Positions 1-43,949 of a stretch of 43,949 nucleotides of DNA are shown here, piece after piece. The translations under genes and the position numbers were made by a program. The stretch covers positions 1-43,949 of the forward strand of contig JAUNMU010000002.1 in assembly GCA_030531745.1 (NCBI GenBank), written 5' to 3'. The notes under the pieces are model-generated. The model saw only the letters and a list, made by a program, of their open reading frames with translations. It made no database searches and had not been told where the DNA came from. The DNA is from Synergistes sp. GTDB lineage: Bacteria > Synergistota > Synergistia > Synergistales > Synergistaceae. Numbering within the stretch: the first letter of the stretch is position 1; each line of letters opens with the position of its first letter.

Positions 1-22
1 CTCCAACGTATGGATATACGCC

Positions 23-76
23 TGATGAACAAACTAAGTTCCGCTACGCAAATCAAAGATTTGCTGCGTCACTTAT
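23..76 (+). repeat. B1 hairpin module (GATGAACAAACTAAG ... CTTA) sitting at a position that is a single T in copy R2
   Basis: Starts with the same 16-mer TGATGAACAAACTAAG as 118-133. Closing stem is TAAGT 35-39 / ACTTA 71-75. Inner stem is GCAAATC 48-54 / GATTTGC 58-64. Confidence 0.6.
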
Positions 77-117
77 CCGCCCCAGTCGTGGACTGCCTGT
101 TTAGCATCCGGCACATC

Positions 118-178
118 TGATGAACAAACTAAGCGACTCACACAAATCGGAAAATCGCCGATTTGGTTCGCTGCTTAT
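118..178 (+). repeat. B2 hairpin module (GATGAACAAACTAAG ... CTTA), second insert-like unit
   Basis: Closing stem TAAGC 130-134 / GCTTA 173-177. Inner 8-bp stem CAAATCGG 143-150 / CCGATTTG 158-165 with loop AAAATCG. A homologous unit lies at 43886-43943 on the minus strand. Confidence 0.6.
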
Positions 179-311
179 AATCAGCGGAAGCCGCTTTTGC
201 GTTTATCTGCCAAAAACAAATTAAACAGCGTTTTCTCAATTATACCATTTTAGGCCGTTATTATCCGTATATTTTTAAGCAATTCAATATATACCTGTAA
301 ATGGAAATTTT

Positions 312-6327: not shown

Positions 6328-7524
6328 ATGCAGCTTAAAACATTTTCGCAGTCGGATATTGCCGGCAAAAAAGTAGTTGTAAGGGTTGACTTCAATGTTC
6401 CTCTTGCAGACGGTAAAGTCAGCGATGACACACGTATCTTGGCGCATATCCCCACGATCACCGCGTTGCTTGACGCAGGTGCCGATGTGGCGTTGATTTC
6501 ACACCTCGGCAGACCGAAGGGCGAACGCAATATGAAGTATTCGCTTGAGCCGGTTTGCGCAAGGCTTGCGGAACTGACGGGATGGAACGTGAAATTTGTG
6601 CCGGATTGCATCGGCAAAAAAGTCTCGGATGCGGTTACGGAATGGAAGAAAGGCGAAATTCTTCTTTTGGAAAATCTTCGCTTTTATTCTGAGGAAGAAA
6701 AAAACGACAAAGAATTTGCAAAAGCCCTTGCGGCTGACTTTGATGCCTTTGTGATGGATGCTTTCAGTGCGTCACACAGAGCACACGCCTCAACACGCGC
6801 AATTACCGAATTCGTGCCGTCATATTCCGGTATGCTCATTAACCGCGAAATAACCATGCTTTCAGCAGCAAGAGATAATCCGAAAAAGCCCTTTGTGCTT
6901 ATCCTTGGCGGAGCGAAAGTCTCTGACAAGATTGCCGTAGTTGAAAATATGCTTCGCAAGGTTGACACGATTCTTGTAGGCGGCGGCATGGCATTTACCT
7001 TCCTGAAGGCACTCGGTAAAGAGATAGGCAAATCTCTCTGTGAGGAACAGAAACTTGACTTTGCAGCGAAAATGCTTGAAGAAGCAAAACAATTCGGAGT
7101 CAAGATCGTGCTTCCGATAGATGTTGTTACCGCAAAAGAGTTTAAGGCTGATTCTCCGGCACACGTTACAGACGCAGATTCAATACCTGCGGATGAGATG
7201 GGGTTGGACATTGGTCCTGCAACGGCAAAACTCTTCGCGGATGAAATTGCAGCCGCTAAGACCGTTATATGGAATGGTCCCATGGGTGTTTTTGAAATGC
7301 CTTCATTTGCAAAAGGCACTGAGGAAGTTGCAAAAGCACTCGTTTCGGCGACACGCAACGGTACATTGACAGTTGTCGGTGGGGGAGACTCAGCTGCCGC
7401 AATAACACAATTCAATATGCAGGATAAAGTTTCGCATGTATCAACGGGAGGCGGGGCAAGCCTTGAGTTCTTTGAGGGCAAGTTGCTTCCGGGAATTGAA
7501 CCGTTCATATTAGGGAACCACTGA
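6328..7524 (+). CDS. pgk: Phosphoglycerate kinase
   Basis: RVDFNVP N-terminal motif and full-length PGK-like sequence. Starts 3 nt after gap. Confidence 0.97.
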   Translation: MQLKTFSQSDIAGKKVVVRVDFNVPLADGKVSDDTRILAHIPTITALLDAGADVALISHLGRPKGERNMKYSLEPVCARLAELTGWNVKFVPDCIGKKVSDAVTEWKKGEILLLENLRFYSEEEKNDKEFAKALAADFDAFVMDAFSASHRAHASTRAITEFVPSYSGMLINREITMLSAARDNPKKPFVLILGGAKVSDKIAVVENMLRKVDTILVGGGMAFTFLKALGKEIGKSLCEEQKLDFAAKMLEEAKQFGVKIVLPIDVVTAKEFKADSPAHVTDADSIPADEMGLDIGPATAKLFADEIAAAKTVIWNGPMGVFEMPSFAKGTEEVAKALVSATRNGTLTVVGGGDSAAAITQFNMQDKVSHVSTGGGASLEFFEGKLLPGIEPFILGNH

Positions 7525-7530
7525 TTATAT

Positions 7531-7685
7531 GCACCATCCGCGTCACAGTCAGACCGCGCCTGTGGCTCCAACGTATTGATATACGCCTCCGCCCCAGTCG
7601 CGGTCTGACTGTTTAGCGGCTGGCACATCTAATCAGCGGAAGCCGCTACCGTGTTTATCTGCCCCAAACGCATTAGTCAGCGTTC
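7531..7685 (+). repeat. Composite intergenic repeat, copy R2: about 90-nt imperfect palindrome (7534-7623) followed by the D module (7631-7685)
   Basis: 14-bp perfect stem 7545-7558 / 7599-7612 (ACAGTCAGACCGCG / CGCGGTCTGACTGT), extended imperfectly on both sides. The 24-nt loop 7567-7590 equals module A of R1. Confidence 0.85.
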
Positions 7686-7711
7686 CTTAGATTAACCTGA
7701 ATAAATATCTT

Positions 7712-33858: not shown

Positions 33859-33955
33859 GATTTTAGCTTCTTGCCTATAATCAGCGCAAAACAGCTATAG
33901 TGTTTATCTGCCAAAAACGAATTAATCAGCGTGTCCTTATCTATGCCGTATCAAT
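33859..33955 (+). repeat. Composite intergenic repeat, copy R3 (degenerate end of B plus D module 33879-33936 plus a partial extra D tail)
   Basis: TAATCAGCGCAAAACAGCTATAGTGTTTATCTGCCAAAAACGAATTAATCAGCGTGTCC aligns with the D modules of R1, R2 and R5. Confidence 0.75.
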
Positions 33956-34036: not shown

Positions 34037-35620
34037 GTGGGGAAATATTTTAATCCGAGTAATCAGAGCTTTACAGATGATTCTACAGCTCCGATATACG
34101 TTGATAAAACGGGGCTGCTTGAACATCTGAATAGATGCATACGCACACCGAACAGGTGCGTAGCCGTCAGCCACGCAAGACGCTTCGGCAAATCGCAGGC
34201 CGCGGGAATGTTAGACGCATATTACAGCAAAGGCTGTAATTCGCACGAACTCTTTTCAAGGTTTGAGATCGCAAAAACGGCGGATTTTGAAAAATACCTG
34301 AATAAATATAATGTCATACACATTGATATGGCGCAAATGTGCGATAACTGCAACGGAGATTTCATGGAAAAACTCTTCAAAACACTTACCGCTGAATTTG
34401 CCGCATCGGAACTCGGTGACAAACTTGACTGTTCCAAACCTGTTGAACTTGTGATAAGTGACATATACACGCTGACCGATTTACCCTTTGTCATAATCAT
34501 AGATGAATGGGACTGCGTAGTGCGTAATTACGCAAGTGATCAAAGACTTGTACATGAGTATATGCAGTTTCTGCACGCTCTCTTCAAAAGTGAATTGGCA
34601 AAACAGTTTCTTGCCCTCGGCTATATAACAGGCATACTCCCGATAAAGAAATTTGATGACGAATCAACACTGAATAATTTCAGAGAATATACGATGATAA
34701 ATTCAAGAGGGCTGACAAAGTACTTCGGTTTCACCGAAAACGAAGTGGAAGAACTGTGCATAAAATATAACGCGGATATTGTAGGTGTGAAAGAATGGTA
34801 CGATGGCTATGACATAAATGGCATATCAATGTATAATCCGAACTCGGTTTGTCAGGCTATGGAGTTTCATGAACTCACATCTTATTGGACGAATACTTCC
34901 TCTTTCAGCACCATAAACAGATTTGTTACGCTGAACTTTGAAGGGCTGAAAGATGACGTTATAAATATGCTCAAGGGTGAGAGAGTTGCTGTAAATGTCC
35001 GCACGTTTAGGAACGATTTGTCCGAGATAAACTCAAAGGACGATGCTTTGACTGCACTCATACATTTGGGTTATCTTGCATACGATACTGAGATGGAAGA
35101 GGCATACATACCGAACTTTGAAGTTGCCCTTGCATATCATTCCGCACTGCCGTCAAGCGGCTGGAAGGACGTTGCCGACTCAATATCGCGTTGTACCGAT
35201 CTGTTGAATGCAACGATAAGAAAAGACGAAGAAAAAGTTGCGGAGCTGATAGATAAGGCTCACACTGCGTACACTTCGCATATCAAATACAATGATGAAA
35301 ATTCTCTGTCATGTGTTGTGTCAATGGCGTACTTCACAGCTCCCGCGTATTATACGATAGTCCGTGAATTTGCATCCGGCAGAGGCTTTGCGGATCTTGC
35401 TTTCATACCGAAGAAAATGTCATCAAACAGACCGCCTATGATAATAGAACTTAAATGGAACAAGTCTGCCGACAGCGCGATAAAACAAGTTAAAGAAAAA
35501 AGGTATCACGGAGCACTCTCCGGATTTTGTAATGAAATTCTCCTTGTAGGTATAAACTACGACAAAGACGACAAGGATAAAAAACATACGTGCAAAATAG
35601 AAAGAGTGAGGAACGTGTAA
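34037..35620 (+). CDS. AAA-ATPase-like (PF09820-type) protein with C-terminal PD-(D/E)XK nuclease-like domain
   Basis: N-terminus FTDDSTAPIYVDKTGLLEHL...RFGKSQAAGMLDAYY and IIDEWD are typical of the predicted AAA-ATPase family. C-terminal GRGFADLAFIP...IIELKWN is a PD-(D/E)XK-like motif. GTG start with AGAGGGAGG SD. Confidence 0.75.
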   Translation: MGKYFNPSNQSFTDDSTAPIYVDKTGLLEHLNRCIRTPNRCVAVSHARRFGKSQAAGMLDAYYSKGCNSHELFSRFEIAKTADFEKYLNKYNVIHIDMAQMCDNCNGDFMEKLFKTLTAEFAASELGDKLDCSKPVELVISDIYTLTDLPFVIIIDEWDCVVRNYASDQRLVHEYMQFLHALFKSELAKQFLALGYITGILPIKKFDDESTLNNFREYTMINSRGLTKYFGFTENEVEELCIKYNADIVGVKEWYDGYDINGISMYNPNSVCQAMEFHELTSYWTNTSSFSTINRFVTLNFEGLKDDVINMLKGERVAVNVRTFRNDLSEINSKDDALTALIHLGYLAYDTEMEEAYIPNFEVALAYHSALPSSGWKDVADSISRCTDLLNATIRKDEEKVAELIDKAHTAYTSHIKYNDENSLSCVVSMAYFTAPAYYTIVREFASGRGFADLAFIPKKMSSNRPPMIIELKWNKSADSAIKQVKEKRYHGALSGFCNEILLVGINYDKDDKDKKHTCKIERVRNV

Positions 35621-35923: not shown

Positions 35924-37126
35924 TTATCTCAATCTTATATTCACCGCAAGGGGACCTTCCGTATAAACATCTTTTGCGGCGAAAATTTCAATGGTAGTTT
36001 CTTTGCTGCTCTTTGATATGTGTTCAATGGCATCCATAAGTTCGTTTGAATCAAGCGAGCCTACATCACCGGTGATAGGATCCCTTAAAACGCCGTCCGA
36101 TGCCGCATTGCCATTCATTGATTTGAGAGCCATATAAATGACCTGTTCAACATCTTGCTGCTTTGTGTTTGGGGCAAATTTATGGCTGAAAAGAACGTCG
36201 CCGGATTTGTAGACAAGCTTTGACTCGCGTGCATCAAGCCGTACTTGAATTGAAGAGTCTCCGTCCACAAGGTTTCCGAGTGCAGAAAGGCGCAGAAGCC
36301 AACGACCGTTTGTATTGATGACTTTGTTCTTTGCCTCTGTAAGGGATGCGGACGAAATCTGCGGCAGCGGAAGCTCCGAAGGTTTTTTGCCGAATCTGTA
36401 AGCAAGCATATCCCTTGCCCATGTACGCATTCTTGCGATGTGGTCGTTCATTTGACGTTCTGTTACGGGTGAGTACTCTGCTATGGATTGTGCCAAAATT
36501 TCCTCGGAAAAGGCGGCAATTCTTCCTGTGCGGAGCTTTTGAATGCCTTGTTTGAGAGTTTCGGATTCTTTTCTGAGTTTATTCACGGATGCCTCAAGTT
36601 TTTTGCTCTCCGCGGTCAATTTTTGGTTTTCAGATGTGAGTTTTTCCTGTTCCGCCTCTGTCTTTGCACGTTCGGCTCTCATATTTGCCAAATCGGAACG
36701 CGCTCTTTGAAGATTATCCATTTCTTCTTTTAATTTTGTGCTGACGCTGTCAAGTTCTCTTTCTCTATCGGATAGATCTCCGCGGCTCTGAAGGAGATCA
36801 ACTTCCATTTTGTACATAGTGTCCTGATTGGTACGCAACTGATCGCGCATAGTGAGAAGCTGGCGCTGGACGAATTGCATTGAAAAAAGCGCCGTCCTCA
36901 CCTGTTCGGAAGCGAGGCTCAATCCTACCATTACGACTACTGCTATCCCAAGTCCCGTGAGGACAGATATGATTCGTGATGTGTACTTAGGACGCAGACC
37001 GAGAAGCGTTATGCGCTTCTTGCCAAGTTTCATCCCGACTACGTCGCCTATAAAGGAGACAAGAATACTCAACGCGATAAGAGCGCATATCAGCATCCAG
37101 TTGACTTCGTAAAGTAATTCGCTCAT
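35924..37126 (-). CDS. DUF3084 domain-containing membrane protein with long coiled coil
   Basis: N-terminal TM pair with the GDVVGMKLGKKRITLLGLRPKYTS motif typical of DUF3084. Coiled-coil segment of about 120 aa. ATG 37138 abuts the SD, so ATG 37126 is preferred. Confidence 0.7.
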   Translation of the reverse strand: MSELLYEVNWMLICALIALSILVSFIGDVVGMKLGKKRITLLGLRPKYTSRIISVLTGLGIAVVVMVGLSLASEQVRTALFSMQFVQRQLLTMRDQLRTNQDTMYKMEVDLLQSRGDLSDRERELDSVSTKLKEEMDNLQRARSDLANMRAERAKTEAEQEKLTSENQKLTAESKKLEASVNKLRKESETLKQGIQKLRTGRIAAFSEEILAQSIAEYSPVTERQMNDHIARMRTWARDMLAYRFGKKPSELPLPQISSASLTEAKNKVINTNGRWLLRLSALGNLVDGDSSIQVRLDARESKLVYKSGDVLFSHKFAPNTKQQDVEQVIYMALKSMNGNAASDGVLRDPITGDVGSLDSNELMDAIEHISKSSKETTIEIFAAKDVYTEGPLAVNIRLR

Positions 37127-37219
37127 CGTGCATATCATCTCCCTACAAGCACCAAAACACTATCGTGTATTATAACAGAAATTTTGTGTAAAATGAATTG
37201 CGGCGGTGAAGTTCATGCA

Positions 37220-37251
37220 AACAAAAAATCGGGAAGAAAACTCTTCCCGAT
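37220..37251 (-). terminator. Rho-independent terminator after the ABC permease gene
   Basis: On the minus strand ATCGGGAAG / CTTCCCGAT stem followed by TTTTTTG. Confidence 0.8.
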
Positions 37252-37256
37252 CACCG

Positions 37257-38495
37257 CTATTCATATTTGAGCGCGTCTATAGGATTCAAAAGAGACGCCT
37301 TGTAAGCGGGGTAATAGCCGAAGCCGATCCCGACCATTGCGGAGAATGCGAATGCAAGCATAATTGATGATATGTTAAATATCGGCGGCGAGGATGTAAA
37401 TGAAGAAAGTGAGGATGTAAACGAAGAAATCGTGTATCCTGCGACAACCCCGAGCAATATTCCGAATGCGCCGCCTATCATTGAGAGAACCACGGCCTCA
37501 ATAAGAAACTGCATTCTTATGTCTTTGGACGTTGCACCTACTGCCATTCTTATGCCTATTTCGCGTGTGCGCTCTGTTACCGATACAAGCATGATGTTCA
37601 TTATTCCTATGCCGCCGACTACGAGTGAAATGAGTGCTACCGAGCCGAGCAGCATTGACATTACCGCTGTGGTTTTGCGTCTGGCTTCAAGCATCTGTGT
37701 TACATTGCGCACTGCAAAGTCATCCGCATCGCCCTGCTTTATCTTGTGCCTTTCGCGCAGCAGAGTTTCTGTCTCGTGCTGAATATATTCAAGCGATTCC
37801 ATTGATATGCCTTTGATGTAAATGTTCCCTATACGTCCGGCTGTCGCCCAGCGAGATAGTCTCCTCTGAGCTGTGGTAAGAGGAACGAGGATAAAATCAT
37901 CATAGTCATTGCCCATTGCGGAGATGCCTCTGCGCTCAAAAATCCCCACGACTGTGAAGGGAATCTTGTTGATTCTTATGGATCTGCCTATAGGATTTTC
38001 TCCGGCAAAAAGTTTATCAACTATAGTATATCCAACTACTGCGACCTTTGCTCCCTGTCTTACATCGGTTGCTTCTATATCGCGCCCAATATCTACCGCT
38101 ATGTCCTGAACGTATGAATAACCTTCGGTGCTGCCAATGACGCTTGAGTTCCAGTTTGTGTTTTCGCAAACCACCGTTGCGGTAAGACTTATCATAGGCG
38201 CGATCGCTGCCACACCGGAGACATTATTTTCAATAGCACGTGCGTCATCATAAGTCAGATACTTTGTGATACCTGCTGTTGATCGTCCAGAACGATCGGG
38301 ATATACCGAGATAAAGTTGCTCCCAAACGAAGATATTTGATCGTCTATGCTCTTGCTTGCTCCGGCACCGATTGCGAAAGCAGCGATGACCGCCCCTACG
38401 CCTATGATTATCCCAAGCGTGGTAAGCATGGAGCGCGTTTTGTTCCTGCGCAGTGCGGTCACGGATGCCGTGAATACCTCAGACATTGCTATCAT
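37257..38495 (-). CDS. ABC transporter permease, MacB/FtsX type
   Basis: MacB_PCD-like periplasmic domain between TM1 and TM2. C-terminal FtsX domain (TREIGIRMAVGA). Confidence 0.9.
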   Translation of the reverse strand: MIAMSEVFTASVTALRRNKTRSMLTTLGIIIGVGAVIAAFAIGAGASKSIDDQISSFGSNFISVYPDRSGRSTAGITKYLTYDDARAIENNVSGVAAIAPMISLTATVVCENTNWNSSVIGSTEGYSYVQDIAVDIGRDIEATDVRQGAKVAVVGYTIVDKLFAGENPIGRSIRINKIPFTVVGIFERRGISAMGNDYDDFILVPLTTAQRRLSRWATAGRIGNIYIKGISMESLEYIQHETETLLRERHKIKQGDADDFAVRNVTQMLEARRKTTAVMSMLLGSVALISLVVGGIGIMNIMLVSVTERTREIGIRMAVGATSKDIRMQFLIEAVVLSMIGGAFGILLGVVAGYTISSFTSSLSSFTSSPPIFNISSIMLAFAFSAMVGIGFGYYPAYKASLLNPIDALKYE

Positions 38496-38497
38496 TG

Positions 38498-39196
38498 TTA
38501 TACACTCCTGCGGTTATTGTTTATTTCGTCTTTCGTGATCACTCCATCGCGAAAGTGAAGTATTCTTTTTGCATACAGTGCAACGTCAAGTTCGTGAGTA
38601 ACCAAAATTATCGTTATCCCTTCATCATTCAGGCGACAGAAGAGCGACATTATTTCATCGCTTGTCTTTGTGTCAAGGTTTCCTGTCGGTTCGTCTGCCA
38701 TAAGTATCGGGGCATGGTTCACTATGCCGCGTGCGATCGCAACACGCTGCTGCTGGCCTCCGGAAAGTTGTGTAGGTTCGTGGTACAGACGATCTTTCAG
38801 CCCCATAGCGATCAGGACCTCTTTTGCCTTAGCGTGCCTTTCGGCTTTCGGCACTCCCGCATACAGCAGAGGAAGTTCAACGTTTTCCATTGCGGTCGTC
38901 TTGGAAAGAAGGTTAAATCCCTGAAAAACAAATCCGATCATTTTATTTCGGATTTCCGCAAGCTGATCGGAAGCCATCTGCGAAACATCTTTGCCGTTCA
39001 GAAAATATTCTCCGCTCGTAGGATGATCAAGACAGCCCAAAATATTCATCGTAGTTGATTTACCGGATCCCGACGGTCCCATCATTGCGACAAACTCTCC
39101 GTCACCCACCGCAAGATCAACACCGTGAAGGATCTCTATGCTTTCATTTCCGAGATTGAAGCTTTTTCTTATGTTCTTAAGTTCAACAAGGTGCAT
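38498..39196 (-). CDS. ABC transporter ATP-binding protein, MacB/LolD type
   Basis: Walker A GPSGSGKST, signature LSGGQQQRVAIAR, Walker B ILMADEPT. Confidence 0.95.
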   Translation of the reverse strand: MHLVELKNIRKSFNLGNESIEILHGVDLAVGDGEFVAMMGPSGSGKSTTMNILGCLDHPTSGEYFLNGKDVSQMASDQLAEIRNKMIGFVFQGFNLLSKTTAMENVELPLLYAGVPKAERHAKAKEVLIAMGLKDRLYHEPTQLSGGQQQRVAIARGIVNHAPILMADEPTGNLDTKTSDEIMSLFCRLNDEGITIILVTHELDVALYAKRILHFRDGVITKDEINNNRRSV

Positions 39197-39197
39197 T

Positions 39198-40400
39198 TTA
39201 TCTACCGCCGTCTCTTGGTACGATAATTCCGGTTATTACCTGCTGACCTTCGTTAATTCCCGATATTATTTCCGTATTCTCTCCGTCCGTTATGCCCTTT
39301 TCAACTTCAACCCTTACAGGTTTTTTGTTTTTGCCAAGTGTATAAACCGCAGGCCCTAAAACTTCAGTAGCGGCGTCTTTCTTTTTCCCCTGATTGGCGG
39401 TCATTTGGTTGGGAAGTCCGTCTGACGGCTTAAAGCGGAATGCGCTGTTCGGAACGGTGAGAACATTGTCTTTGTGTTCCAGAAGAAGTGATACGTTTGC
39501 CGTCATGCCCGGAATCAATTTCTGATCCGGGTTGGCTACCTGCGCTACGACTACATACGTTACCACGTTATCCGATGCTTGAGGTGCAAGTCGTATCTGT
39601 GCGACTTTGCCCGCAAATTCCTCGTTAGGGTAGGCATCAACATTAAAAATAGCCCGCTGACCGTTATAGACACCCCCTATATCTGCTTCATCAACATTTA
39701 TTTCAACCTGCATGTGCGTTAAGTCTCTTGCTATTTTGGCGATTGAAGGCGTCTGATAGCTTGCGGCAACTGTCTGTCCCTCTTCAACATTTTTTGCGAT
39801 TACCGTGCCTTTTACCGGCGAATATATCCGTGTGTAGTTAAGGTTTATTTTTGTCTTCTGCAGTGTCGCCTGATATTGTTCAACCTTTGCCTGTGCCGCT
39901 GCAAGCTTCGCTTCCGCTATGTCGCGTGTGCTCTGATTTTTATCAAGTTCACTCTTTGCTACCAGGTCGTTTTTTATGAGCTGCTGTGTGCGCGAAAGAT
40001 CTTTTTCGGCAACGATAAGAGACGCCTTTGCGCTCAGCACATCGGCCTTTGCCGAGTCAACATTTGCCTGTGCAAGGTCAACTTCGGCTTCCTGTGTAGC
40101 GGAATCCATCAGCGCTATCAGCTGTCCCTGCTCCACTTCGCTGTTATAGTCAAAGAAAAGCTGCTTTATTCTGCCTGAGATCTGTGTACCTACATCAACA
40201 GTCTCAACGGGATTAAGTGTTCCCGTTGCCTGAATCGTTGAAACAAGGTCTCCGCGCACGACCGGACTTGTTCTGTAATTTATCTCCTGCTTACCGTCTC
40301 TTAAGTATGCGTAACCGCCGGCCGCTGCGACGCATACCACTAATACCCAAAATGCCGGTTTGAATAATTTGCTTCCCCTGCCAAGAAATTTAATTCCCAT
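39198..40400 (-). CDS. Efflux periplasmic adaptor subunit (MacA/HlyD family)
   Basis: TM anchor, coiled-coil hairpin, lipoyl and beta-barrel segments. ATG 40400 is preceded by GGAGG at 8 nt; the ORF-track start at 40427 would overlap the tolC-like gene. Confidence 0.87.
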   Translation of the reverse strand: MGIKFLGRGSKLFKPAFWVLVVCVAAAGGYAYLRDGKQEINYRTSPVVRGDLVSTIQATGTLNPVETVDVGTQISGRIKQLFFDYNSEVEQGQLIALMDSATQEAEVDLAQANVDSAKADVLSAKASLIVAEKDLSRTQQLIKNDLVAKSELDKNQSTRDIAEAKLAAAQAKVEQYQATLQKTKINLNYTRIYSPVKGTVIAKNVEEGQTVAASYQTPSIAKIARDLTHMQVEINVDEADIGGVYNGQRAIFNVDAYPNEEFAGKVAQIRLAPQASDNVVTYVVVAQVANPDQKLIPGMTANVSLLLEHKDNVLTVPNSAFRFKPSDGLPNQMTANQGKKKDAATEVLGPAVYTLGKNKKPVRVEVEKGITDGENTEIISGINEGQQVITGIIVPRDGGR

Positions 40401-41664
40401 AGTCCAATCCTCCCATAGCTTTTTCAAGGTTAAGCTGTGCTGTCTTGCATATATGAAGTGAAAGCACTTTGTTAGTTGATGCAGATGCGTAGCTTTCTAC
40501 AGCATCGGAGATCTCAAGGCTGCTTCCAACACCTGCTGCATAGCGCCCTTCCGCTAAATCCAAAGTTGCCTTTGCGGAACGTTCTGCCTCCAGTGACGAA
40601 AGGTATGCCTCCTTTGCCTCTCTGAGAGCTTGCCAATATTGGCGTATTTCAAGCGAAACACTGTTTTTCAAAGACTGCATCTCAAACTCTGCCACTTTCA
40701 GCTTCGCTTCGGCCTCCTGCGTCCTGCTCTTTGTCAAACCTCCGTCGGATATGGGCAGGGTAAGTGAAAGTCCTGCGTTCCAGTCCCCTCCGTTGTCAAA
40801 AAACGACACGCCTCCGGAGCCGTAGCCTGCTGTGGCAGAAAGGGAAGGCGAAAGTCCCTTTTTCTGGAGTGTAAGGTTTGTCTTGGCATATTCAACACGC
40901 TTTGCCTTTGCTGCGATCTCAGGTCTGTTTTGCATTGCTCTTTCAATGGCCTCGTCAACCGTGACTTCAAATTCTTTGAAATCAAGCATATCAACAACAC
41001 CGTCTATGTCGCGCAGCGGCTCGCCCATAAGGTTTGCAAGTTCTGCTTTACAATCTTCTTTGTCTGCTTGAGCCTTTACAATGGCAAGTTTTGATGCGGC
41101 TAAATCTGCCTCTGCCTTTGTGACTTCAATCTTTGCCTTTGTACCGGCATTGTAATACGATTTTGCCCAAGCAAGACGTTTTTTGTAGTTGTTAAGACGT
41201 GTTTTCGCTATTTCTTCATCTCTGACAGCTTTGTTGATTCCGTAATACGCGGTCCACACATCCTTAATGAGAGCCTGCCTTACTGAAAAAAGATCATAAG
41301 ATGCAGCTTCTGTTGAGAGGATCGCACCTTTAACCTTTGACTCGCGCCTGCCCCAATCGGAGATAGACTCCGTTAAGGCAACTCGTTCCGTAAAGCTGCC
41401 GTTATGGTTTTCGCTTGAAAGTCCGCTGCCGGCACGTGTATAACCCGCGCTTGCCGAGATCTGAGGACGGGCTGTTGAGGCTGCCTGCTGAATTGTTGCC
41501 TTCTGTGCCGTAATTGTTTCTGCTGCGCTCTTCACATCGGGATTGTTCATAATGGCTGCCGAAAGACATTCTTCTATCGTCAGCGTTGCCCCAAAGCATG
41601 AAGCAGCCGATGATAAAGTTATCACTGCGGCGGAGATAAAAACGCCTATAGCCGATCTGCTCAT
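40390..41664 (-). CDS. TolC family outer-membrane efflux protein
   Basis: Signal peptide. Two OEP repeats with a long coiled-coil pattern. 424 aa. Confidence 0.85.
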   Translation of the reverse strand: MSRSAIGVFISAAVITLSSAASCFGATLTIEECLSAAIMNNPDVKSAAETITAQKATIQQAASTARPQISASAGYTRAGSGLSSENHNGSFTERVALTESISDWGRRESKVKGAILSTEAASYDLFSVRQALIKDVWTAYYGINKAVRDEEIAKTRLNNYKKRLAWAKSYYNAGTKAKIEVTKAEADLAASKLAIVKAQADKEDCKAELANLMGEPLRDIDGVVDMLDFKEFEVTVDEAIERAMQNRPEIAAKAKRVEYAKTNLTLQKKGLSPSLSATAGYGSGGVSFFDNGGDWNAGLSLTLPISDGGLTKSRTQEAEAKLKVAEFEMQSLKNSVSLEIRQYWQALREAKEAYLSSLEAERSAKATLDLAEGRYAAGVGSSLEISDAVESYASASTNKVLSLHICKTAQLNLEKAMGGLDYGN

Positions 41665-43109
41665 GATAGATATGCTCCTTTTTCTTTTATCTTTAGCGGA
41701 ATTTCAACGGTGAAAGTGCTGCCTTTGCCCAATTCGCTTTCTGCCCTAATAGTTCCGTTATGTGCTTCAACTATCGCTTTTACTATCGCAAGACCTATGC
41801 CGATACCGCCGCTTGTCCTTGTGCGCGAAAGATCCGTCCTGTAAAAACGTTCAAAGACGTATGGGAGATCCTTAGGAGCAATGCCTATGCCCGTATCCTT
41901 AACCTTTATCGTAAAGCTGTTGCCTGTATTTGCGGCGGTGAATGTGACACTGCCCCCCTCATCTGTGTAACGCAGAGCATTTGATAAAAGGTTTTCCACG
42001 ACCTGACGAATCTTTGCTCCGTCAACCTCAGCAAATATCTTATCTTCAATACTGCGTTTAAGCAATACGCCTTTGGCTGCATACATGGGATCAAACGCCA
42101 TAGCTGCTCTCTCCGCGGTTTGCGATATATCTATATTTTCAAATGTTATGCAGTGCGCCGCGCTCTCTATGGACGTAAGCTTTTCCACTTCGCGTATGAG
42201 AGAAGAAAGCCTGTCAATTTCACCTACCGTAAGACGTATTCTTTCAGGTGTCGGCTGCCACACCCCATCTTCAATCGCCTCAAGATGAGATTTGATTATT
42301 GTTACTGGATTGCGCAGCTCATGCGCTATGTCACTTAACAGGCGTCTGCGCAGGTTTTCCTGTTCTTTAAGGGATTCTCCGAGCCTGTCAACGCTGTCAA
42401 CCAATACGGCAAGCTCTGTTATATCCGTATCGGTCTTTTCGCTCTTTTCATATTCGCCTCTGCTTATCTGACGAGCCATATTTGCCGTGTTCAAAACGGG
42501 GCGGCTTATGCGATGTGCCATAAAGACTGCGATCAACACGGCAACGGCAAGCATTGCCGCGACTGCGTAATACATTATTTTATTAAATTTTGTCAGAAAT
42601 CGTCCTTCGGGGCTGAACGAGAAAGGAAGAATGCTGAAATGTATTTCTCCGATTCTGATCCCTTCTACATACAGTTCACGTCTTTCAATCATAATATCCC
42701 TTGCAGGTACGGTATCTCCATGTGTATGAAGGCTGTGCGAACCTGTATTCGGCCTTCTGCCACTAAGCTCCAAACTGCTGCTGCGGCGGCTCGTACTCTC
42801 CATACGATTGTACATTCTGACGCTTCTTCCGTCGTTGTCAAAAAGCTCAACCTTAAACATCGGCCATCTGATAAAGTCGTTGTTTTCAGGGAAAAGTCTG
42901 CTCTCTCTCCAAGTGCCATACTCAAGATATACACGCACAAAGTACTCCGCGATCTCAATCTCGTTTTCCTGAAGCCTTTCACTCGCAAAACGTCTGAACT
43001 GCATATCAAGCAGTTTTGAGATCGCCGCCGGTATCACGATCATACAGACAATTACGATCACCATATACTGGAAAATGAGCTGTGTGCGGAGAGAGCGCTT
43101 GACCTTCAT
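41661..43109 (-). CDS. Sensor histidine kinase (TM - periplasmic loop - TM - HAMP - HisKA - HATPase_c)
   Basis: H-box SDIAHELRNP, N-box NLLSNALRYT, G-boxes DTGIGI and GGIGIGLAIV. Confidence 0.92.
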   Translation of the reverse strand: MKVKRSLRTQLIFQYMVIVIVCMIVIPAAISKLLDMQFRRFASERLQENEIEIAEYFVRVYLEYGTWRESRLFPENNDFIRWPMFKVELFDNDGRSVRMYNRMESTSRRSSSLELSGRRPNTGSHSLHTHGDTVPARDIMIERRELYVEGIRIGEIHFSILPFSFSPEGRFLTKFNKIMYYAVAAMLAVAVLIAVFMAHRISRPVLNTANMARQISRGEYEKSEKTDTDITELAVLVDSVDRLGESLKEQENLRRRLLSDIAHELRNPVTIIKSHLEAIEDGVWQPTPERIRLTVGEIDRLSSLIREVEKLTSIESAAHCITFENIDISQTAERAAMAFDPMYAAKGVLLKRSIEDKIFAEVDGAKIRQVVENLLSNALRYTDEGGSVTFTAANTGNSFTIKVKDTGIGIAPKDLPYVFERFYRTDLSRTRTSGGIGIGLAIVKAIVEAHNGTIRAESELGKGSTFTVEIPLKIKEKGAYLS

Positions 43110-43798
43110 TTTGTGCCGTCCGAAATTTTGTAGCCAAAACCGTGAACAGTTCTTATATAACCGTTTTCGTGCTGTGGGTCGCTCAGTTTCTTGCGTATAT
43201 TTTTGATATAGCTGTCTATTGATCGTTCAAAACCGTCATATTCATATCCAAGTGCGTATGTTATAAGATCGTCTCGGCTCCATGTCTTTTCGGGCCGTGA
43301 TGCCAATTTTGACAAAATCATAAATTCATTGCGGGTCAAAGAGATCTCTTCACCGTTTTTTAATACCGTGAGGTTATCTGTGTCAATGGCAAGCGAATCG
43401 CCCACGTTTATTACATTGTTTTTCAGTGAATTTTGTGTCGGTTTGTTCCTGCGCAGATTTGCCCTGATTCTTGCCATCATAACACGCGGCGAAAACGGCT
43501 TTACAATGTAATCATCGGCTCCGGCATCAAGCCCCGCTATAATGTCATCTTCGCCGCTCTTTGCCGTGACCATTAAGATAGGTGTTGCGGAATTTTTGCG
43601 TATTTCTCGGCACACGTCAACTCCGGACATCTCGGGAAGCATCAGATCAAGCAAAACAAGGTCATATTTGTCCTGATAAAATTTTGCAAGCCCCTCTGTA
43701 CCGGAAGCCGCAATATCCGCACTATGACCATCGCGTTCAATATACGCTCGTTCTACCTCTGCTATGGCTCTTTCGTCTTCAACAATAAGTATCTTCAT
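43106..43798 (-). CDS. OmpR-family response regulator
   Basis: Receiver domain (ILIVEDE, DLVLLDLMLP, K at ...IVKPF) and winged-helix output (RTVHGFGYK). Overlaps the kinase start (ATGA). Confidence 0.94.
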   Translation of the reverse strand: MKILIVEDERAIAEVERAYIERDGHSADIAASGTEGLAKFYQDKYDLVLLDLMLPEMSGVDVCREIRKNSATPILMVTAKSGEDDIIAGLDAGADDYIVKPFSPRVMMARIRANLRRNKPTQNSLKNNVINVGDSLAIDTDNLTVLKNGEEISLTRNEFMILSKLASRPEKTWSRDDLITYALGYEYDGFERSIDSYIKNIRKKLSDPQHENGYIRTVHGFGYKISDGTK

Positions 43799-43829: not shown

Positions 43830-43949
43830 GACACACTGATTAATTCGTTTTTTGCAAATAAACGCAAAAGCTGCTTCCGCTGATTATAAGCAGAGAACCG
43901 ATTTGCCGATTTTGCAAATCGTGTGACTCGCTTAGTTTGTTCACCGGAT
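43830..43949 (-). repeat. Composite intergenic repeat, copy R5 (minus orientation; B module 43886-43943, D module 43830-43885; cut by window end)
   Basis: The reverse complement aligns base-for-base with 121-235 except for the swapped hairpin stem and a few substitutions. The D module ends 31 nt upstream of the response-regulator ATG. Confidence 0.85.

Follow-up and report, generated by a model that had tools for sequence, protein, structure and literature searches.

The BOX, RUP and SPRITE repeats of pneumococci, the Correia elements of Neisseria and the ERIC sequences of enterobacteria are intergenic modular stem-loop units, often co-transcribed and variable in their module content. Those modular repeats of this group whose mobilisation is known are associated with TA or longer duplications. 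Insertion at a fixed position inside a palindromic repeat is found for IS1397 and ISKpn1 in REP loops, for the IS1111-attC group and for the MITE Chunjie, all of them either protein-coding IS or MITEs of larger size whose TIR and TSD are defined.

REPs come closer to the element described here. They are recognised as a folded single strand, and an imperfection of the stem and a 5' tag are required (PMC3333891). PMC3333891 and PMC3733652 give the defining tag as a conserved GTAG (or CGTC) at the 5' foot of the palindrome. Recognition of IS200/IS605 elements is also based on hairpins, with functional sequence lying 5' of the hairpin foot (PMC3333891).

The window analysed is a stretch of 43,949 nucleotides of Synergistes sp. 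(Synergistaceae; assembly GCA_030531745.1, contig JAUNMU010000002.1, positions 1 to 43,949 of the forward strand). An earlier note on this DNA had drawn attention to a hairpin whose stem differs between two repeat copies, R1 and R5, by paired changes. This hairpin is the tip of a discrete inserted cassette of 53-61 nt; the earlier note was right about the hairpin and missed the cassette that encloses it. We favour, at a probability of about one in two, the view that a small non-autonomous mobile DNA cassette, 53-61 nt long and propagated via its folded single strand, carries this hairpin as its apical stem-loop.

Cassette anatomy and copies in the window

The cassette is composed of an unpaired purine-rich 5' tail, GRTGRRMAAAC, of one long imperfect hairpin and of the end ...CTTAT with its terminal T. 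Its hairpin comprises an outer stem TAAGY/RCTTA, an internal loop ..ACAC/GGTT.., an apical stem of 5-8 bp and an A-rich loop. A single continuous hairpin covers the whole cassette according to folding and to RNAalifold, which predicts the same structure independently.

A covariance model applied window-wide with filters off finds exactly three cassette copies, R1a, R1b and R5 (Table 1). Two subtypes, distinguished by loop length (7-8 nt in the long one, 3-5 nt in the short one), co-occur in the window and in one Synergistaceae MAG. R1a is ~85% identical to short-type copies of a Synergistaceae locus (L073). By comparison with R1, R5 is devoid of 9 nt (CACATCTGA) at the 5' junction between host and cassette, the first two cassette bases included; its junction at 43940-43949 reads ATCCGG|TGAAC on the minus strand, and the inner stem of R5 is perfect nonetheless.

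Table 1. Cassettes, inner hairpins and host repeat segments of the window
Feature	Position	Strand	Description
Short-type cassette R1a, 53 nt	24..76	+	Same tail, ...CTTAT end; covariance-model match 26.8 bits
Inner hairpin of R1a (B1)	48..64	+	GCAAATC-AAA-GATTTGC
Long-type cassette R1b, 60 nt	119..178	+	GATGAACAAAC tail, TAAGC/GCTTA, ACAC/GGTT, CTTAT; covariance-model match 84.7 bits
Inner hairpin of R1b	143..165	+	CAAATCGG-AAAATCG-CCGATTTG; DNA fold -6.3 kcal/mol, z = -3.3
Long-type cassette R5, 60 nt	43886..43945	-	Begins GGTGAAC; covariance-model match 79.4 bits
Inner hairpin of R5	43899..43921	-	CGATTTGC-AAAATCG-GCAAATCG; DNA fold -6.8 kcal/mol, z = -4.0
Complete host repeat without cassettes	7518..7698	+	Inverted repeat I4 (49 nt, 80%); families D2, D3, D15
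Host repeat, apical part, clipped by window start	1..23	+	Equivalent to 7566-7588; family D15, 96% identity
Host repeat, right arm	77..118	+	Equivalent to 7589-7630; family D3, 85% identity
Host repeat, 3' module	179..246	+	Family D2; terminator-like hairpin 183-195
Host repeat, 3' module only (R4)	33870..33947	+	Families D2, I3; 30-mer match
Host repeat 3' module adjoining R5	43830..43885	-	Inverted repeats I1-I3; upstream of response-regulator gene (43798-43106, -)

Insertion sites

Five filled/empty comparisons define the cassette boundaries. The first lies in the window, where R1a and R1b fill the sites that are empty at 7588|7589 and 7630|7631, respectively, of the complete host copy; the segment 24-76 is flanked by ..CGCCT and CCGCCCC..., the segment 119-178 by ..CACATCT and AATCAGCGG..., and both begin with GATGAACAAACTAAG and finish with CTTAT. 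A second is provided by Tissierella (L086), with an empty unit (..ATCACCT|CGTTGCAG..) situated ~70 nt upstream of the filled one, and a third by a Bacillota MAG (L052), whose empty palindrome TGTCATYCTGAGC...GCTCAGRATGACA is set against the filled TGTCATTA|cassette|CTGAGC. The remaining two are the empty and filled versions of GACCTACTCT|CCCACGAA at L064 and, at L073, a short-type cassette nested in a long-type one after GATT|. The cassette lies in all five settings directly 3' of YT, with no duplication beyond an ambiguous 1-nt T, and beside or inside another hairpin-forming repeat. Taken together, sites that exist filled and empty, nesting of one copy in another and placement after YT with at most 1 nt duplicated point to a small mobile element of non-autonomous type. 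The TIR and TSD of at least 2 bp of a classical MITE are not found, the outer stem being preceded by an 11-nt unmatched 5' tail.

Two of these loci have features of their own. The filled (6470-6545) and empty (6640-6660) sites of L064 lie in a duplicated stretch similar to the 3' terminus of 5S rRNA with its terminator, the cassette there carrying the variant tail GGGTGGGAAAAC; the neighbouring copy, clipped by the contig end, scores weakly as a truncated 5S (16.6 bits). On the minus strand of L073, the short-in-long nesting extends over 169-57, and the same short type is followed at 1994-1900 by only the 3' two-thirds of the long type. The short and long subtypes may travel together.

Host repeats of the window and their neighbourhood

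The repeats of the window are composites, each of the three cassettes sitting inside a larger intergenic palindromic repeat. In its complete form, between pgk and tpiA, this host repeat is made of a long hairpin (arms 7518-7566 / 7591-7639) followed by the 3' module, and it gives no covariance-model match for the cassette. Positions 1-246 hold this host repeat again, clipped by the window start and enlarged by the two extra segments R1a and R1b. Just 3' of the cassette, at 183-195 (+) and 43880-43864 (-), the host carries a terminator-like hairpin, AGCGG-AAG-CCGCT, and then the T-rich TTTGCGTTT; the junction between cassette end and host reads TATAAT in R1b, R4 and R5. The window begins and ends within inverted copies of the repeat (115-231 versus 43833-43949, 85% complementary). 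Short-read (Logan) contigs of the same sample end at the repeats, as found in look-ups of rapZ and tpiA, which gave only short contigs of this kind, so that cassettes and host repeats fragment short-read assemblies.

R4 precedes a gene (34037-35620, +) for a predicted AAA-ATPase with a PD-(D/E)XK nuclease domain, while R5 precedes genes (35924-43798, -) whose Pfam annotation indicates a response regulator of OmpR type, a histidine kinase and an efflux operon of OEP/HlyD/MacB type. Among the ten window proteins scanned, none was seen to be a transposase. The Pgk of the window is 77-79% identical to that of Cloacibacillus and of Ca. Caccocola. These relatives also share its gene order rapZ-cofD-whiA-GDE-gap-pgk-tpiA, and the two findings place the window in Synergistaceae. 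The orthologous pgk-tpiA spacer of Cloacibacillus and of a relative with 79% Pgk identity contains neither the host repeat nor the cassettes. A look-up of the response-regulator protein, aimed at the orthologous R5 locus in other strains, gave no record.

Distribution in other genomes

A pattern anchored on the tail and on CTTAT yielded ~21 true copies among 39 matches in the GTDB species genomes, and a second pattern 8 further cassette copies in JGI metagenomes. The conservation of the tail is partly built in because copies were retrieved by exact-match tail patterns. The cassette was found at three Synergistaceae MAG loci, in an uncultured Tissierella (MAG CAZHLF01, 5 loci), in the cultured Tissierella pigra and Anaerovirgula multivorans, in an unclassified Bacillota MAG (JARBUP01, 6 loci) and in the assembly ERZ1673695. 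Given the Synergistaceae window and the Bacillota carriers, the cassette spans two phyla. At least six exact-pattern copies are found in one MAG and three copies in the 44 kb of the window, arranged singly, in direct tandem (L066: 136-195, 223-282) or nested (L073). Cassette flanks vary from genome to genome, and the host repeat differs between genomes.

Several of the host repeats can be delimited. The window host hairpin (~115 nt, 7518-7640) is homologous to the host repeat of ERZ1673695 (L093, minus strand, 9262-9137; L097, L098, L091, L095), with which it has in common the motifs TTATAWGCAC, GCGTCAYA, an apical CGTAT..ATACG hairpin, TTTAGC and GCACNTCT; the intervening stems differ with pairing kept. 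It is a second structured repeat family, for which Rfam has no match. The host of the uncultured Tissierella (L055, L059, L063, L078, L086) is a ~200-nt repeat, TATAACGAGGTG...CACTCACCT|CGTTGCAG..GCTTAAA, which is always gene-oriented and stops right at the RBS of unrelated genes (ABC ATPases, PNPase-like, MreB-like). This repeat could be a mobile 5'-UTR or promoter element. The Bacillota MAG has a ~75-110-nt palindromic host repeat, TGTCATYCTGAGC..AGCGAAGRATCT..loop..AGATYCTTCGCT..GCTCAGRATGACA, seen at L052 (~1640-1755) and hosting cassettes at L052-L079, L090, L094 and L096. A hairpin of L066 holds CCGCTGATT, the complement of the window flank AATCAGCGG.

Other searches gave no relative of the cassette. 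In viral contigs the specific cassette pattern has 0 matches, and the 49 matches to a short pattern were rejected as chance or unrelated. BLAST of the cassette consensus against plasmids returned chance matches only, and a k-mer search of literature full text found unrelated primers only and no published sequence match. Two structural assignments were also discarded. The CTGATGA of R1 recalls a hammerhead, but its CT belongs to the flank and there is no stem II/GAAA arrangement downstream. A pseudoknot between the GAAC of the tail and GGTTC is broken by the variants GGCTC, GGTAC and GGTTG, the tail remaining constant.

Variation of the apical stem and loop

The inner hairpins of R1 and R5, as read directly from the sequence, each have an 8-bp stem and a 7-nt loop. 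Their ungapped alignment over 113 nt (121-233 versus 43943-43831) reveals 17 mismatches; the stem accounts for 8 over its 16 positions, the loop for 0 over 7 and the remainder for 9 over 90, a significant enrichment in the stem (Fisher's test, p = 3e-4). The claim of the earlier note that four of eight pairs differ around an identical loop is thereby confirmed: the differences sit at pairs 144/164, 146/162, 148/160 and 150/158 and all eight are compensatory, the chance that 8 random stem substitutions make 4 complete Watson-Crick-restored pairs being ~7e-5. It was equally correct in describing the near flanks as unchanged (CACA.. and ..GGTTC in both copies) and the short inner hairpin of R1a as the R5 stem with its arms swapped around an AAA loop. 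Both 23-mers fold as predicted as single-stranded DNA, and the full 60-nt cassettes R1b and R5 have fold z values of -4.0 and -4.6 versus shuffles.

This pattern extends to the family. In 20 long-type copies from at least six genomes, aligned by MAFFT on sequence alone, 96.6% of stem cells are paired; shuffles give 84% (none of 500 attains the observed value) and slid partners 27-48%. Double-sided changes occur at 8 pairs. The earlier note had seen a risk for its inference in stems that would often lose pairing in a larger alignment; the model-based alignment of 28 distinct copies has 96.8% of stem cells paired and double-sided changes at 13 of 15 pairs. At least 15 different apical stems occur, all of them paired, and all four Watson-Crick types are seen in the apical four pairs. 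The basal CAAA/TTTG is nearly fixed, R5 being the main exception, and the strands are asymmetric, with an A-rich 5' arm in ~25 of 27 copies. The proposal of selection on a hairpin with a sequence-specific loop is supported in part, for constraint on the pairing but not, as worded, for the loop. AAAATCG is not invariant: the consensus is ARAAYCR, of which only the A-rich 5' half is well conserved, and long-type loops include AAAATCA, AAAACCG, AAAACCA, AGAATCA, TGAATCG, AAGAACG, AAAAACA and AAAACTT, those of the short subtype being AAA, AGA and GGAAG.

Constraint on pairing is therefore supported, as the earlier note had argued against neutral decay, but a mutation process acting on DNA palindromes can also compensate, without selection on each pair. 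According to this view, the R1/R5 compensation would be mutational, by intra-hairpin template switching, gene conversion templated by inverted sequence nearby or one rearrangement of the three AAATCG/CGATTT copies. It is the main rival of the mobile cassette reading. In its favour, the stem changes 5x as much as the flanks, the loop duplicates an arm and a 12-nt copy of the host is found in ERZ1673695, all of which is in line with templated changes in a palindrome. The stem differs by 50% and the flanks by 10%, faster than background, as fits a local process. The loop AAAATCG of R1 and R5 itself contains the arm motif AAATCG, the order being AAATCG, AAATCG, CGATTT in R1 and CGATTT, AAATCG, AAATCG in R5. 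A 14-mer AAATCGG-N-AAATCG is common to R1b (144-157) and R5 (43912-43899), 13/14 identical and offset by 8 nt, and R5 corresponds roughly to the order X' X L of the R1b parts X L X'. With this layout of repeated motifs, an alternative to four independent double substitutions is that three motif copies changed their order. The loop repeats the 5' arm in several lineages (AAATCGG/AAAATCG, AAAATCG/AAAATCA, GAATCGC/TGAATCG).

The cassettes of ERZ1673695 provide the other argument. Their loop and 3' arm (AAATCGGCGTTT) are a 12-nt copy of the left end of the host repeat, complementary also to 12 nt situated 3' of the cassette (L093, minus strand, 9136-9060; equivalents in L097, L095, L098 and L091). 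The match has p < 0.0005 versus shuffles in L093, amounts to 8-11/12 in the other ERZ1673695 loci, and suggests re-templating from neighbouring sequence. Perfect inner stems are moreover kept in truncated, presumably immobile copies (L066b, L073:1908 and R5 of the window), so that pairing may be maintained by something besides selection for mobility. Against a purely mutational origin, three features that pure homogenisation would not lead one to expect are conserved across phyla: the basal CAAA/TTTG, the arm asymmetry and, in the loop, the A-rich 5' half. This conservation shows that some selection also acts. The unchanged flanks and 23-nt length of R5 mean in addition that any rearrangement would need to have been exact. 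Cassette and host have no significant similarity in the window (p = 0.5-0.8), the ERZ1673695 12-mer being the only significant case, and a derivation of the cassette from its host repeat was rejected. We consider it rather unlikely that mutation by itself accounts for the R1/R5 difference.

Orientation and possible roles of the hairpin

All 29 of 29 cassette copies are intergenic. The genes beside them are unrelated (rapZ, pgk/tpiA and the two-component/efflux operon in the window), and clustering of the ORFs next to the copies on the genome fragments revealed no recurrent neighbouring protein family.

The cassette could be a structured RNA module of transcripts, such as a stabiliser, a small ribozyme or a hairpin for protein binding or processing, with selection at the RNA level keeping the stem and the A-rich loop. 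The strong covariation and the semi-conserved loop and tail are in line with this proposal, as is the position of the Tissierella composite directly upstream of the RBSs of unrelated genes. In the Bacillota MAG, cassette and host together fold into a three-way junction, of which a 13-nt joining strand is conserved. Composites mostly share the strand of the downstream gene in the window (3/3 cassettes) and in the window, ERZ1673695 and Tissierella together (10 of 11 composites in one count, 13 of 14 in another), where they may play a part in transcripts. Over all copies, however, 16 have the orientation of the downstream gene and 11 the opposite one, and five oppose both neighbouring genes; such mixed orientation weakens a general role at the transcript level. 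An optional insert in a host repeat that also nests in itself displays insertion behaviour, unlike a dedicated regulatory leader, and the diversity of the neighbouring genes likewise speaks against an RNA module. Rfam 15 at gathering thresholds yields no family match in the window or in 16 loci, and only noise around the cassettes even at E <= 10. Nothing indicates a ribozyme or a described RNA family; the earlier note had found a protein- or ribozyme-recognised structure a better fit than neutral decay. An RNA module appears slightly less probable still than a purely mutational origin of the compensation.

It is very improbable that a dimeric DNA-binding protein uses the palindrome as its double-stranded operator. 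Several copies do have a perfect 13-14 bp palindrome formed by loop and 3' arm, such as AAAATCATGATTTT in the Bacillota MAG and AAATCG-C-CGATTT in R1b, but many others have none (ERZ1673695, L066, L082, L065). The stem sequence varies within and between genomes with only pairing kept, the opposite of what a sequence-reading protein needs, and the neighbouring genes are unrelated. An intrinsic terminator or its remnant, to which the intergenic position, the stable hairpin and the terminator-like hairpin of the host immediately 3' could point, is scarcely credible since the cassette stem is A/T-rich with no T-run after it and the terminator scan flags only the host hairpins 183-195 and 43880-43864, never the cassette.

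Relation to known elements and proposed propagation

The mobile cassette reading finds its closest models in REP/BIME sequences and their RAYT (TnpA-REP, Y1 HUH) enzymes. Like the cassette, these are short imperfect palindromes in many intergenic copies with a conserved unpaired 5' sequence, and they are cleaved or inserted with limited specificity at a pyrimidine dinucleotide. Unlike REPs as defined in the two REP sources, the cassette has no GTAG/CGTC: its tail is GRTGRRMAAAC and its foot CTAAGY, the short type carrying CTAC 5' of the inner hairpin. It is also longer (53-61 nt versus the usual 20-40 nt), occurs as single, tandem-direct or nested copies with no inverted pairs of the BIME/REPIN kind, and has its junction after YT and not within C|T. 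Its hosts are Synergistota and Bacillota, and no RAYT gene, other HUH enzyme or transposase was found in ~215 kb of loci and the window, whose ORFs display no Y1/HUH-like motif pair.

The cassette shares with IS200/IS605 elements the lack of classical TIRs and of target duplication and the insertion 3' of a short motif. It departs from them by having one hairpin in place of distinct left and right ends, a target that is merely YT and no TnpA/TnpB nearby. The strand bias expected of lagging-strand ssDNA transposition is not detectable either: between co-oriented flanking genes the cassette is on the same strand in 6 cases and on the opposite one in 5, a small sample of 2-21 kb fragments with crude ORF calls in which flanking genes serve as proxy.

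Other systems are more distant. Integron attC sites, which are recognised by structure, also have a fixed hairpin base and unpaired bases with a variable central paired part. The cassette ends, however, are GRTG.../...CTTAT and not the core sites RYYYAAC/GTTRRRY, there is neither integrase nor cassette array, and the neighbours are housekeeping genes. BOX/RUP/SPRITE, Correia and ERIC have no known sequence relation to the cassette, which inserts in a different host repeat per genome. IS1397/ISKpn1, IS1111-attC and Chunjie resemble it in forming nested repeats and differ from its ~55 nt devoid of coding capacity.

The unpaired constants, the covarying apical stem, the absence of target duplication and the hairpin-rich targets correspond to the substrate logic of REP/RAYT and IS200/IS605. 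By analogy with these systems we infer that single-stranded DNA is the recognised form, and the type of enzyme likewise. The propagating factor would read the folded single strand by its shape and by a few fixed unpaired bases, those of the tail, the internal loop and the AAAA of the loop, leaving the apical stem sequence free to vary as long as pairing holds. Insertion would take place exactly 3' of YT, next to or inside hairpin-forming repeats, and the cassette would have spread between Synergistota and Bacillota. Compensation was possibly aided by palindrome mutation, through arm-to-arm template switching and reshuffling of the AAATCG motif.

A bolder proposal, which we put forward tentatively and regard as considerably less likely than the mobile cassette reading, is that an undescribed structure-specific system acting on a folded single strand inserts a ~55-nt hairpin precisely 3' of YT, beside hairpins already present and even within copies of itself, and has been shared horizontally between Synergistota and Bacillota. 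The co-occurring and nesting long and short types could then be two cognate ends or substrates.

Significance

The cassette is best regarded as a new family within a known kind of element, the small structured interspersed repeats. It resembles REP and IS200/IS605-type elements in its apparent logic and fits the definition of neither. Hairpin repeats with compensated stems are already familiar; the new part is an undescribed cross-phylum element. One lesson of the R1/R5 pair is that compensatory changes in DNA palindromes are by themselves insufficient evidence for a functional RNA. The cassette represents a clean case of a structure-conserved, sequence-variable repeat, in which tail, internal loop and pairing are constant over two phyla while the apical stem varies. 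If its mobilising enzyme is found, single-strand recognition of the REP/IS200 type would be extended to Synergistota and anaerobic Bacillota, and this could explain how small hairpins accumulate inside other repeats.
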